Positions 29,601 through 38,600 of a DNA stretch of 64,000 nt are shown here, piece after piece (the first letter of the stretch is position 1; every line of letters starts with the position of its first letter). Origin of the DNA: Nemertoderma westbladi (lineage: Eukaryota > Animalia > Xenacoelomorpha); assembly GCA_032718475.1 (NCBI GenBank), contig JAUCBJ010006028.1, positions 19,724 to 83,723 of the forward strand, in the 5' to 3' direction. A model generated the notes under the pieces. That model was not told the DNA's origin. It did not search any database and saw nothing but the letters and a program-made list of their open reading frames with translations. The position numbers and the translations under genes were made by a program.

Positions 29601-32600
29601 TTCTTCACTGTGCACTTATAGCTAACGATACTGGCTCATTTATAGGCGACGGCAGTAGCAGTATTGAACAGAGTTTATCCGAGATTCAGTTTGTTGTGTC
29701 ACCCAGACGCTCCAAAAAACGACCCACGCCTGCGGCCGCTATCGGTAGGGACTTCAGCTTTGATTCTGGATTCAAGCTTGGTATGTTAAGTATTACGTAA
29801 AAAGTTAAAGTTAGGTATTATATTAATTACATAGAAGTTAGGTAAGTAGAGTAATTAATTAAATCGGTAAGGTAGAACTGGTAGGTATTATTTAGGTAAG
29901 ATAAGTATAAATTATGTTAAGTTCGGTTTTAACTAGGTTATGTTAGGTATTAGGTTAGGTTTGCGTTTGGTGTTAACTAAGATTCGTTATTTAGGTTTAA
30001 TCTAATATGTCACATGCTGATGATAAGCCCCTATAGTTGCGGTTACGTTTAAATTATTGTTCATTTTCAATTATTAATTTGTTCCCGAATTAATTGCTTG
30101 TTGTTTTGGTTTAGGGTTGTTTGAGGAAGCCCGTTTAGTGGCTCCTGTTCTGCCTCAGTATCACCCCAAACAGCTCCAGGAACTGCTTAGCAGTGGGAAG
30201 ATGAAACGAGTTAAAGCTATTCTCGCTCACTTAGTGCGAACCGTGGCTGGCGAGAAGGCTGTTAACCGGGTACTAGCTGTAGGTTAGTACATTACTGAAC
30301 CAGGTGGTTTATTATTGTAAAAGTCGAGTTTATTTCTGGAACAGTCAATAAATCAGCTTCAATAAATCAGCAAAAAATCTAACAGCCTACCGTTATGAAT
30401 GACGTTATGACGGTCATATTAGTTATCATTAAACGGCCAATATACTCTAACCTTTCTCGTAAAACTCACTTTATTTCATTTTAAACATTATGAGTCTGCA
30501 CTTTATTTCATTATAAACATTACGAGTCTGCACTTTATTTCATTATAAACATTACGAGTCTGCACTTTATTTCAATTTAAACATTACGAGTCTGCACTTT
30601 ATTTCAATTTAAACATTTCGAGTCTGCACTTTATTTCATTATAAACATTACGAGTCTGCACTTTATTTCATTATAAACATTACGAGTCTGCACTTTATTT
30701 CAATTTAAACATTACGAGTCTGCACTTTATTTCAATTTAAACATTTCGAGTCTGCACTTTATTTCATTATAAACATTACGAGTCTGCACTTTATTTCATT
30801 ATAAACATTACGAGTCTGCACTTTATTTCATTATAAACATTACGAGTCTGTACTTTATTTCATTATAAACATTACGAGTCTGTACTTTATTTCATTAGGC
30901 GACGACACCTCCTGTTATCCACCCCGACGAGGTTCCTTCCGAGTTCGAACTATCTCGATTAGCGGAACTTCTCCCAAAGACGCTCCGGCCCTTTCTGAAT
31001 GCGCCGCGGCCGACAGTGTGCGGTTGGATTACGTGGAGATCACTTCTATTCCTCCCCTACCGCTGCACGCCCTGCTGGCTGTGGAGGCTGACATAATAGG
31101 GGCGCATACTGGGGGAGGAGGGGCAGCTAACTCAGTTGACGTTAAACAACCAGTAGTAGCTACAGAGTAAGCATACTGAAAGTAATACTGAGGGGGGGGG
31201 GCAGCTCGATTTTCGGTTAGGGATAGTCAAGGCATTAATCTAAAGTAAATCTGTCATGGAGTAGGTGGTGAGTTGAGTCTAACCCTCTGCCATGGAGTAG
31301 GTGGTGAGGTGAGTCTAAACCAGCCTGTAAAAATCACCCCAATTCCTGCCGGTGATTTCATATTTGTCAGACATTTTTTATTTATTTATTAGAACCACGC
31401 CGGATAATTATTCCTCGTTGTTTGAGTTGCCAACTGAAGAAGATTTGGATAACAATTTGTTCGAGAAGCCGAGAACGTTGTCCAGAGGACGGGAGATTTC
31501 TCCTTCTCAATTTGGACCGGCGCAGGTGAGAATAGTTCCTCAGCCGATAGTGAGTGAGGATAGTTCCTCAACCGATAATAGGTGAAAATAGTTCCTCAAC
31601 CGATAGTGAGTGAGAATATAGTACCTCAAACCGATAGTGAGTGAGAATAGTTCATCAACCGATAGTGAGTGAGAATAGTTCATCAACCGATAGTGAGTGA
31701 GAATAGTTCCTCAACCGATAGTTAGTGAGAATAGTTCATCAACCGATAGTGAGTGATAATAGTTCCTCAACCGATAGTTAGTGAGAATAGTTTCGCAAAC
31801 CGATAGTGAGTGAGAATAGTTCCTCTGCCGATAATGAGTGAGAATTAGTTCCTCAACCGATAGTGAATGAGAATAGTTCCTCAACCGATAGTGAGTGAGA
31901 ATAGCTCCTCAACCGATAGTGAATGAGAATAGTTCATCAACCGATAGTGAGTGAGAATAGTTCCCCAACCGATAGTTAGTGAGAATAGTTTCGCAAACCG
32001 ATAGTGAGTGAGAATAGTTCCTCTGCCGATAATGAGTGAGAATAGTTCCTCAACCGATAGTGAGTGAGAATAGTTCCTCAAACCGATAGTGAGTGAGAAT
32101 AGTTCCTCAACCGATAGTGAGTGAGAATAGTTCCTCAAACCGATAGTGAGTGAGAATAGTTCCTCAACCGATAGTGAGTGAGAATAGCTCCTCAACCGAT
32201 AGTGAATGAGAATAGTTCATCAACCGATAGTGAGTGAGAATAGTTCCCCAACCGATAGTTAGTGAGAATAGTTTCGCAAACCGATAGTGAGTGAGAATAG
32301 TTCCTCTGCCGATAATGAGTGAGAATAGTTCCTCAACCGATAGTGAGTGAGAATAGTTCCTCAAACCGATAGTGAGTGAGAATAGTTCCTCAACCGATAG
32401 TGAGTGAGAATAGCTCCTCAACCGATAGTGAATGAGAATAGTTCATCAACCGATAGTGAGTGAGAATAGTTCCTCAACCGATAGTTAGTGAGAATAGTTT
32501 CGCAAACCGATAGTGAGTGAAAATAGTTCCTCTGCCGATAATGAGTGAGAATAGTTCCTCAACCGATAGTGAGTGAGAATAGTTCCTCAACCGATAGTGA

Positions 32601-35600: not shown

Positions 35601-38600
35601 AACCGATAGTGAGTGACAATAGTTCATCAACCGATAGTGAGTGAGAATAATTCCTCTGCCGATAATGGGTGAGAATAGTTCCTCGAACCGATAGTGAGTG
35701 CGAATAGTTCCTCAACCGATAATGAGTGACAATAGTTCCTCTGCCGATAATGGGTGAGAATAGTTCCTCAAACCGATAGTGAATGAGAATAGTTCATCAA
35801 CCGATAATGAGTGAGAATAGTTCCTATGTCGATAATGGGTGAGAATAGTTCCTCAAACCGATAGTGAGTGAGAATAGTTCCTCTGCCGATAATGGGTGAG
35901 AATAGTTCCTCAAACCGATAGTGAGTGAGAATAGTTCCTCTGCCGATAATGGGTGAGAATAGTTCCTCAAACCGATAGTGAGTGAGAATAGTTCCTCAAC
36001 CGATAGTGAGTGAGAATAGTTCCTCAAACCGATAGTGAGTGAGAATAGTTCCTCAACGCGATAGTGAGTGAGAATAGATCCTCAAACCGATAGTGAGTGA
36101 GAATAGTTCTTCAAACCGATAGTGAGTGAGAATAGTTCATCAACCGATAGTGAGTGAGAATAGTTCTTCAAACCGATAGTGAGTGAGAATAGTTCCTCTG
36201 CCGATAATGGGTGAGAATAGTTCCTCAAACCGATAGTGAGTGAGAATAGTTCCTCTGCCGATAATGGGTGAGAATAGTTCCTCAAACCGATAGTGAGTGA
36301 GAATAGTTCCTCAACCGATAATGAGTGACAATAGTTCCTCTGCCGATAGTGAGTGAGAATAGTTCCTCTGCCGATAGTGAGTGAGAATAGTTCCTCAACC
36401 GATAGTGAGTGAGAATAGTTCCTCAAACCGATAGTGAGTGAGAATAGTTCCTCAAACCGATAGTGAGTGAGAATAGTTCCTCTGCCGATAATGGGTGAGA
36501 ATAGTTCCTCAAACCGATAGTGAGTGAGAATAGTTCCTCAACCGATAATGAGTGACAATAGTTCCTCTGCCGATAGTGAGTGAGAATAGTTCCTCTGCCG
36601 ATAATGGGTGAGAATAGTTCCTCAAACCGATAGTGAGTGAGAATAGTTCCTCGGCCGATAATGGGTGAGAATAGTTCCTCGGCCGATAATGGGTGAGAAT
36701 AGTTCCTCAAACCGATAGTGAGTGAGAATAGTTCCTCAACCGATAATGAGTGACAATAGTTCCTCTACCGATAATGGGTGAGAATAGTTCCTCAAACCTA
36801 TAGTGAGTGAGAATAGATCCTCAAACCGATAGTGAGTGAGAATAGTTCTTCAAACCGATAGTGAGTGAGAATAGTTCCTCAACCGATAGTGAGTGAGAAT
36901 AGTTCCTCAAACCGATAGTGAGTGAGATTAGTTATTCAAGCCGATAGTGAGTGAGAATAGTTCCTCAACCGATAGTGAGTGAGAATAGTTCCTCAAACCG
37001 ATAGTGAGTGATAATAGTTCCTCAAACCGATAGTGAGTGAGAATAGTTCCTCAACCGATAGTGAGTGAGAATAGTTTCTCAACCGATAGTGAGTGAGAAT
37101 AGTTCCTCTGCCGATAATGAGTGAGAATAGTTTCTCAAACCGATAGTGAGTGAGAATAGTTTCTCAACCGATAGTGAGTGACAATAGTTTCTCAACCGAT
37201 AGTGAGTGACAATAGTTCATCAACCGATAGTGAGTGAGAATAATTCCTCTGCCGATAATGGGTGAGAATAGTTCCTCGAACCGATAGTGAGTGCGAATAG
37301 TTCCTCAACCGATAATGAGTGACAATAGTTCCTCTGCCGATAATGGGTGAGAATAGTTCCTCAAACCGATAGTGAATGAGAATAGTTCATCAACCGATAA
37401 TGAGTGAGAATAGTTCCTATGTCGATAATGGGTGAGAATAGTTCCTCAAACCGATAGTGAGTGAGAATAGTTCCTCTGCCGATAATGGGTGAGAATAGTT
37501 CCTCAAACCGATAGTGAGTGAGAATAGTTCCTCTGCCGATAATGGGTGAGAATAGTTCCTCAAACCGATAGTGAGTGAGAATAGTTCCTCAACCGATAGT
37601 GAGTGAGAATAGTTCCTCAAACCGATAGTGAGTGAGAATAGTTCCTCAACGCGATAGTGAGTGAGAATAGATCCTCAAACCGATAGTGAGTGAGAATAGT
37701 TCTTCAAACCGATAGTGAGTGAGAATAGTTCATCAACCGATAGTGAGTGAGAATAGTTCTTCAAACCGATAGTGAGTGAGAATAGTTCCTCTGCCGATAA
37801 TGGGTGAGAATAGTTCCTCAAACCGATAGTGAGTGAGAATAGTTCCTCTGCCGATAATGGGTGAGAATAGTTCCTCAAACCGATAGTGAGTGAGAATAGT
37901 TCCTCAACCGATAATGAGTGACAATAGTTCCTCTGCCGATAGTGAGTGAGAATAGTTCCTCTGCCGATAGTGAGTGAGAATAGTTCCTCAACCGATAGTG
38001 AGTGAGAATAGTTCCTCAAACCGATAGTGAGTGAGAATAGTTCCTCAAACCGATAGTGAGTGAGAATAGTTCCTCTGCCGATAATGGGTGAGAATAGTTC
38101 CTCAAACCGATAGTGAGTGAGAATAGTTCCTCAACCGATAATGAGTGACAATAGTTCCTCTGCCGATAGTGAGTGAGAATAGTTCCTCTGCCGATAATGG
38201 GTGAGAATAGTTCCTCAAACCGATAGTGAGTGAGAATAGTTCCTCGGCCGATAATGGGTGAGAATAGTTCCTCGGCCGATAATGGGTGAGAATAGTTCCT
38301 CAAACCGATAGTGAGTGAGAATAGTTCCTCAACCGATAATGAGTGACAATAGTTCCTCTACCGATAATGGGTGAGAATAGTTCCTCAAACCGATAGTGAG
38401 TGAGAATAGTTCCTCGGCCGATAATGGGTGAGAATAGTTCCTCAAACCGATAGTGAGTGAGAATAGTTCCTCAACCGATAATGAGTGACAATAGTTCCTC
38501 TGCCGATAATGGGTGAGAATAGTTCCTCAAACCGATAGTGAGTGAGAATAGTTTCTGAACCGATAGTGGGTGAGAATAGTTTCTGAACCGATAGTGGGTG

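Follow-up and report, generated by a model that had tools for sequence, protein, structure and literature searches.

An intron of the DMXL/Rabconnectin-3 alpha gene of the xenacoelomorph Nemertoderma westbladi is made almost entirely of a minisatellite that begins at the donor splice site. This donor-anchored array was probably enlarged through slippage and unequal exchange, and it is likely tolerated, with splicing expected to stay at the first and strongest donor. It is a large example of an already known type of repeat, whose closest published case is the variable number tandem repeat (VNTR) in intron 18 of human ABCA7. All coordinates refer to the window, i.e. the whole 64,000-nt stretch analysed (contig JAUCBJ010006028.1, positions 19,724 to 83,723 of the forward strand).

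The modelled part of the host gene lies on the forward strand (23405..57249) and comprises 25 exons, both gene ends falling outside the model. It was identified by tblastn, exon modelling and Pfam Rav1p_C matches on two exons, and is open throughout without any stop. Eight metagenome loci were compared, seven of them distant DMXL homologues and one (L008) a chance match. The array-bearing intron (31526-38706, 7181 nt, phase 0) is supported as such by the open model, by colinear tblastn matches of locus L002 to 20 of the 25 exons and by L004, which has an intron of the same phase in the same place. The upstream coding exon (31393..31525, forward strand, 133 nt) has no tblastn match of its own; it ends in the codons FGPAQ, and FGPRQ or FGPSH precedes the match of the next exon in homologues L002, L003, L005 and L006. 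The downstream coding exon (38707..38866, forward strand, 160 nt) is strongly conserved, with 47-64% tblastn identity to DMXL/Rav1 proteins over about 40 residues. Protein searches returned no close relative, a DMXL exon reaching at most 78% identity over a short conserved stretch. The NAB protein is about 33-42% identical over most of its length to those of many animal phyla. Tandem repeats make up 14.8 of the 28.4 kb of modelled DMXL introns. The median intron is 270 nt without repeats, in a genome that is otherwise one of short introns.

The array was delimited by TRF at 31526-38604 on the forward strand (period 28, 249.2 copies, 88% matches). Parsing resolved 249 units of 53 distinct types, with lengths of 28 nt (n = 153), 29 nt (n = 94) and 31 nt (n = 2). 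The first unit is intron +1 to +28, so that the repeat opens exactly at the exon border, CAG|GTGAGA, a motif present only once in the intron. It is followed by a unique AT-rich tail (38605..38706, forward strand, 102 nt, 77% AT) that carries the pyrimidine tract and the acceptor AG and is the same in contigs of sequencing runs X1 and X2. The hexamer GTGAGA occurs 208 times and GTGAGT 160 times (64% of the units); the latter arises across the junction of two units, the copied donor itself not forming it. The first-pass annotation had described just such an array, starting at intron base +1, with roughly 250 units mostly carrying GTGAGT and some 105 bp of unique intron before the acceptor at 38706, and these points all held.

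The repeat fills 98.6% of the intron from its first base, which raises the question of whether the intron itself was gained by tandem duplication of a proto-splice site. Two homologues, L005 and L007, have no intron at this position. However, the 28-bp unit contains no exon bases and resembles neither flanking exon (best 12/28), the tail has the AT-rich make-up usual for the end of an intron, and the distant animal L004 carries a 1850-nt intron without minisatellite at the same position and phase. The repeat thus did not create the intron; judged from L004, intron gain by tandem duplication appears already largely refuted, and we consider it extremely improbable. The first-pass annotation had instead proposed an intron of about 130 bp expanded roughly 50-fold. 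That a repeat born at the donor enlarged a small, ordinary intron is supported by a unit found nowhere else in the window and unlike the exons, and by the position shared with L004. The figure itself is arithmetic (102 + 28 nt, 55-fold), and neither a close relative nor a short allele was encountered.

The array grew via nested block duplications. Exact self-matches run over 263 nt at an offset of 283, 456 nt at 2358 and 322 nt at 2441, and 1595 nt are free of mismatch at 1593, as the offsets of 283 bp, about 2.36-2.44 kb and 1593 bp noted at first reading had indicated. Offsets 2358 and 2441 belong to the blocks of one single event, an older duplication of 2.3-2.5 kb on the forward strand whose first block (31554..33854) and its copy (33855 to about 36324) differ at 15 of 2271 aligned nt (0.66%) and by whole-unit indels. 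The youngest duplication (35204..38389, forward strand) comprises two identical 1593-nt blocks, 35204-36796 and 36797-38389. Such perfect identity could mean that the array is real with a size inflated by assembly, the second block being a false duplication. The contig depth of repeat 31-mers, which is not a copy number, is 25-32 times that of unique sequence in run X1, and cannot tell whether the test 31-mer is present 31 times or the roughly 26 times expected without the second block. Where the two blocks meet, however, lies a hybrid unit that the window contains only once, and the exact overlap is just 2 nt; an erroneous join of overlapping sequence would presumably leave a long one. The older duplication, with its 15 substitutions and unit indels, is no artefact, and the objection touches only 1.6 of the 7.1 kb. 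A false duplication is unlikely.

The authentic donor, CAG|GTGAGAAT (31523..31533, forward strand), whose use in RNA is presumed, has a predicted U1 pairing of -11.1 kcal/mol and a position weight matrix (PWM) score of 9.8, and ranks second in strength among the 24 donors of the model. All donor copies in the array are predicted to be weaker, since the unit lacks the exon bases -3 to -1: the 32 copies of TGG|GTGAGA reach -9.3 kcal/mol (PWM 6.0), the first lying 1702 nt downstream, the 158 copies of ATA|GTGAGT -6.5 kcal/mol (PWM 5.6) and a further 159 internal sites -4.6 kcal/mol (PWM 2.6). The TGG|GTGAGA copies are nevertheless predicted to exceed the strength of the gene's median true donor (-7.75), and are commoner in the younger 3' part of the array (5/83, 0/47, 12/56, 12/56 and 3/7 units from 5' to 3'). 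An in-frame stop occupies intron codon 20. Of 388 internal GTGAG, GTGAA or GTGGG sites, 385 lie beyond this stop and, among the other three, only that at +24 is in frame; hence all but one would yield a frameshifted or stop-containing transcript. Masking of the decoys by RNA structure was rejected: the fold is modest (z -2.25), the centroid unstructured, and the median predicted accessibility of GTGAGT copies (0.026) like that of real donors (0.0225). Recursive splicing or pseudo-exons are not favoured either. The scores of the most frequent acceptor-like AGs are about 0 to 1.3 and the highest is 3.3, whereas the real acceptor has 4.0 and the median of the gene is 7.8; only two TAG|GT sites occur.

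The first-pass annotation had interpreted the array as a U1 snRNP sink or as a telescripting platform suppressing premature polyadenylation. In human cells, U1 is reported to pair with cryptic intronic sites (PMC8316553). In the array, the 197 sites at or below -5 kcal/mol amount to 27.8 per kb, about three times the 8.6 per kb of non-repeat intron, and sites at or below -7 kcal/mol to 4.5 against 2.2 per kb; GTGAGT copies are predicted to be at least as accessible as real donors. The density of such sites makes local binding of some U1 plausible. Maintenance of the array for this function is another matter. A scan assuming human-type poly(A) signals found no AATAAA in the intron, one ATTAAA in the tail and, of the rare variants, only six AATAGA and two AATATA in the array. 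GTGAGT is lost in 36% of the units, and the hexamer is not preferentially conserved: identity is 0.916 at its positions and 0.956 over the rest of the unit, with 1.5 and 1.09 alternative alleles per position, respectively, among copies that are not independent. The nuclear U1 pool is of the order of a million per mammalian cell, beside which a single gene whose nascent transcripts offer some 200 sites counts for very little. No copy includes exon bases, and each is predicted to be weaker than the real donor; the U1-motif content of the copies is a consequence of descent from it. Numerous other arrays also lie in introns of the host gene; acceptors are copied in some of them and nothing in others. 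The proposed function was not upheld and is very unlikely.

The tolerated, donor-anchored repeat accounts for these features as follows. The array would have been born in a short intron of about 130 nt, on GTG(A) microhomology 28 nt apart, and would then have lengthened, probably through slippage and unequal exchange. Splicing at the first donor, chosen through exon definition and co-transcriptional capture, is the most likely outcome; the array is likely tolerated because the spliceosome would stay with this first, strongest donor. Rare mis-spliced transcripts would be removed by decay. Array length probably varies between individuals. A 36-nt duplication in the preceding intron is missing from sequencing runs X2 and X3, indicating that tandem duplications segregate here.

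The ABCA7 VNTR has a 25-bp unit of slight variation that opens with the GT of the donor, and spans 298 bp to 10,678 bp, i.e. about 427 units (PMC5954066). A cryptic donor lies one unit downstream, with about 2% single-unit retention, and longer arrays lead to more skipping of the downstream exon and lower expression (PMC5954066; De Roeck et al. 2018). Both repeats consist of head-to-tail units in one intron, the first opening with the donor GT, with donor-like sites repeated downstream. In ABCA7 length polymorphism and its effect on splicing were measured, whereas for the DMXL array both are predictions; without its array the DMXL intron would be only some 130 nt long, and its nested kb-scale duplications are resolved. 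By analogy, tolerated need not equal neutral. A chance-born array whose length lowers correct splicing, with skipping of the 133-nt or the 160-nt exon, could tune or burden DMXL output between individuals. Architecture and size range are those of ABCA7, both flanking exons are 1 mod 3 so that skipping either would shift the frame, and the acceptor score is modest. In run X2 the depth of repeat 31-mers is about 11-15 times that of unique sequence, whereas the window has 27-31 copies; this hints weakly at a shorter allele, although it is contig depth, not copy number, and the 31-mer letters were inferred. Lancelet mirage repeats are reported not to disturb splicing (PMC3087553; PMC3902484). Such a dosage modifier is unlikely.

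In the 37-bp VNTR of human F7 IVS7, whose companions are the 6-16, CBS, LAMIN B2 and PDGF cases, only the most upstream of identical donors is reported to be used (PMC1557585; Borensztajn et al. 2006). This minisatellite also begins at the donor, but its unit includes four exon bases, making its 5-9 copies identical to the real site, and its pseudo-sites are silent; the DMXL array has 249 units without exon bases and predicted weaker copies, and its first-donor use is presumed. The amphioxus 'mirage' minisatellites (Adh3, troponin C, globins, PGBD5) are invertebrate repeats at donor and acceptor borders with unstable length and normal mRNA (PMC3087553; PMC3902484). Unlike them and F7, the 28-bp array abuts the border without spanning it, and it is far longer than the amphioxus cases compared. 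A literature search for acceptor-reiterating minisatellites found none, yet the amphioxus cases exist (PMC3087553). The DMXL array also recalls higher-order satellites of the alpha-satellite type in having variant monomers duplicated as multi-unit blocks. Its blocks, however, are nested, unequal and in two to three copies, with no regular higher-order period, at a single intronic locus.

Five of the ten larger intronic arrays of the DMXL gene touch a splice border (one donor-abutting, one donor-spanning, two acceptor-spanning and one acceptor-abutting). This enrichment exceeds chance with present intron lengths (P 0.002-0.02) and vanishes (P 0.58) with an assumed intron length at birth of about 120 nt. 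Three arrays, of 43, 69 and 41 bp, fully fit the mirage definition: their units include exon and intron bases and carry full copies of real sites, with 31 and 13 acceptor matches, the real site included, and 10 downstream CTG|GTAAGT donor copies. With five border arrays of differing type, this gene is a natural test bed. In the three spanning arrays intron-proximity rules would choose the wrong sites and exon definition the right ones, so that a single set of long-read transcripts would probe the choice of splice site five times. More speculatively, and with little probability in our view, border-anchored minisatellites, found at or across splice sites in five introns of one housekeeping gene, might be a genome-wide source of splicing variation, the 7-kb array, whose younger blocks gain stronger TGG|GTGAGA decoys, serving as a dial, variable in length, that sends DMXL transcripts to decay and sets the dosage of a V-ATPase regulator. 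Should array length change DMXL output, the array would be the counterpart, in an invertebrate, of the ABCA7 disease VNTR.

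The minisatellite at 31526-38604 has a period of 28 and 249.2 copies according to TRF, and unit-by-unit parsing resolves it into 249 units of 53 variants. Its onset is the G of CAG/GTGAGA (the slash marks the splice border) and its end lies 102 nt short of the acceptor at 38706. A search of both strands of the whole window gave 246 matches to the unit, all of them inside the array. The repeat reported at this donor by the first-pass annotation is real and well described there, and the array belongs to an already known kind. The many GTGAGT motifs that it mentioned number 160 across the units, next to 208 GTGAGA. 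The proposed original intron of about 130 bp agrees with the subtraction, i.e. 102 nt plus one unit; the smallest introns of the gene measure 109, 120 and 123 nt and its median intron 270 nt once repeats are taken out.

By sequence similarity, the exons flanking the array are part of a DMXL/Rabconnectin-3 alpha gene. DMXL-like proteins match along the window (tblastn) and Pfam Rav1p_C was matched on two exons. The gene model comprises 25 exons (23405-57249) in a single frame without stops, including when the donor of its second exon was set by eye at 23868. Twenty of these exons match colinearly L002, a metagenome locus with a distant DMXL homologue; protein searches did not recover a close relative of this animal. 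The exon upstream of the array (31393-31525) had no tblastn match in the homologous loci. It terminates in FGPAQ, and the homologues carry FGPRQ or FGPSH immediately before the residues matching the downstream exon (38707-38866). The locus L004 has a 1850-nt intron of identical position and phase that contains only microsatellites; no intron occurs there in L005 and L007, and L002 and L003 are uninterrupted. The homologue endings and the L004 intron indicate that the exon-intron border is well supported and that the intron would be older than its repeat. The reverse order, in which the repeat created the intron, deserves almost no credence.

The likeliest reading, held with good confidence, is a donor-seeded minisatellite grown by unit and block duplications and tolerated by splicing. 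Duplication of intron bases +1 to +28 would have seeded the minisatellite, which unit and block duplications would then have enlarged. Offsets of 226 and 283 recur within both large block copies, so these short blocks would represent the earliest stage of growth. The next duplication involved 31554-33854, whose copy shows 15 substitutions across 2271 aligned bases, together with gains or losses of whole units (28-56 nt). The latest involved 35204-36796, with zero differences between copies. Its junction is a hybrid unit of single occurrence with 2 nt of exact overlap, which appears more consistent with recombination out of register than with a false join made in assembly. A false youngest block is given a low probability, and it would be compatible with donor-seeded growth.

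Logan contigs were compared at the unique flanks of the array only. In the run X1, possibly the source of the window and not independent of it, a repeat 31-mer reaches a depth of 1400 versus 43-56 for unique contigs (25-32 times), and the window has 31 copies of its likeliest candidate. These values are consistent with the assembled array size and a single locus; depth in contigs is a weak gauge, and repeat 31-mers have inferred letters. The run X2, from a different sample and study, contains an identical 363-nt acceptor-side stretch terminating at the same point in the repeat, with repeat 31-mers at a depth of 245-250 versus 16-22 (11-15 times). The array is therefore present in a second sample, where, by the same weak depth measure and inferred letters, it may be shorter. 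Close by, a 36-bp two-copy duplication (31250-31318) is a segregating, newborn minisatellite: it is found in the window and X1, and 31255-31290 is missing from X2 and a third run, X3.

Pairing was computed with the human U1 5' end, with pseudouridines left out of the model. The real donor scores -11.1 kcal/mol, second among 24 model donors (median -7.75). The 158 ATA/GTGAGTGA sites score -6.5 kcal/mol each and the 159 TGA/GTGAGAAT sites -4.6 kcal/mol. The strongest decoys, absent from the first-pass annotation, are 32 TGG/GTGAGAAT sites (-9.3 kcal/mol), the first one 1702 nt into the intron; predicted RNA folding does not conceal the decoys. Translation continuing past the upstream exon would end at intron codon 20. 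Beyond this stop lie 385 of the 388 GTGAG, GTGAA and GTGGG sites, and of the others only the one at +24 would preserve the frame, adding 8 residues. The array had also been proposed to act as a U1 sink or to suppress premature polyadenylation (telescripting). Depending on the threshold, the array is 2- to 6-fold richer in U1-like sites than intron sequence outside repeats. The six hexamer positions show an identity of 0.916 to the unit consensus versus 0.956 for the other 22, hence no sign, at the sequence level, of selection preserving the hexamer. AATAAA is absent from the intron, ATTAAA occurs once, in the tail, and the array has eight rare variants. The proposed role thus lacks support and is very unlikely.

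Tandem repeats make up 14.8 of the 28.4 kb of modelled intron, and five of the ten larger intronic arrays touch a splice border. The 43-bp array (24457-25875) and the 69-bp array (28407-29322) contain 31 and 13 matches, respectively, to the real acceptor and the start of the following exon, including the real site and all with AG. All their upstream copies are frameshifting or stop-containing, and both arrays are true 'mirages'. The 32-bp array (30467-30897) ends 1 nt before the last base of the acceptor; its last unit terminates in the acceptor AG, where the penultimate unit has AT. The 41-bp array (52256-52735 and 55700-55790) repeats an exon end and its donor, with ten further CTG/GTAAGT copies, one of them 3.5 kb off beyond later insertions; degenerate copies about 3 kb onward adjoin the acceptor, as if the array had been split by insertion of 16-bp GA-rich and 72-bp repeats. 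For placement at borders, P is 0.002 when 24 introns are used, 0.022 when the 5.9-kb intron harbouring nested genes is dropped, 0.01 for host introns only and 0.58 assuming 120-nt introns at array birth. This enrichment is flattered because the ten arrays were picked post hoc from 47 TRF rows, with overlapping rows merged and nine short rows within the gene span (at most 47 nt, none on a border) left out. Given this choice and the value at 120 nt, small-intron geometry is enough to account for the border pattern.

The VNTR of ABCA7 intron 18 is of the same design as the DMXL array: the unit is 25 bp, the donor GT forms its first two bases and the length ranges from 298 bp to 10.7 kb (PMC5954066). 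An ABCA7-like effect of array length on splicing is given a low probability here. Repeats in F7, 6-16, CBS, LAMIN B2 and PDGF (PMC1557585) and the amphioxus mirages (PMC3087553, PMC3902484) duplicate the entire splice border. The 28-bp array falls outside this stricter definition, whereas three neighbouring DMXL arrays fall within it.

Other repeats and genes share the region. A 31-bp satellite (1-20845; at least 672 copies, 95% matches) continues past the window start. Since the DMXL model opens with an exon that carries an acceptor and aligns to the middle of the protein, this satellite may lie in an upstream DMXL intron, as an array three times the size of the 28-bp one. An intronless antisense beta-tubulin ORF (46284-47615, minus strand) lies within a DMXL intron. 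Two further intronless antisense ORFs, a NAB co-repressor (59936-61351, minus strand) and a 550-aa ORF of leucine-rich appearance without Pfam match (20915-22567, minus strand), are probably nested as well. Beside the tubulin, a GC-rich 252-codon ORF (48067-48825, plus strand) resembles by eye a non-LTR retroelement 3' end, with no Pfam match at E 0.01. The intron following that of the array holds a high-copy dispersed repeat (38901-39278), possibly a MITE end, whose summed contig depth near 39225-39275 reaches up to several hundred thousand in three runs.

Under donor-seeded growth, the array would be tolerated for these reasons: the exonic CAG is found at the real donor alone; this donor would be transcribed first and form a pair with the exon upstream of it; and leaked mis-spliced products would be degraded. 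By analogy with the first-site preference in the F7 experiments (PMC1557585) and the U1/Pol II tethering of an upstream donor (PMC8316553), a preference for the first donor is most likely.
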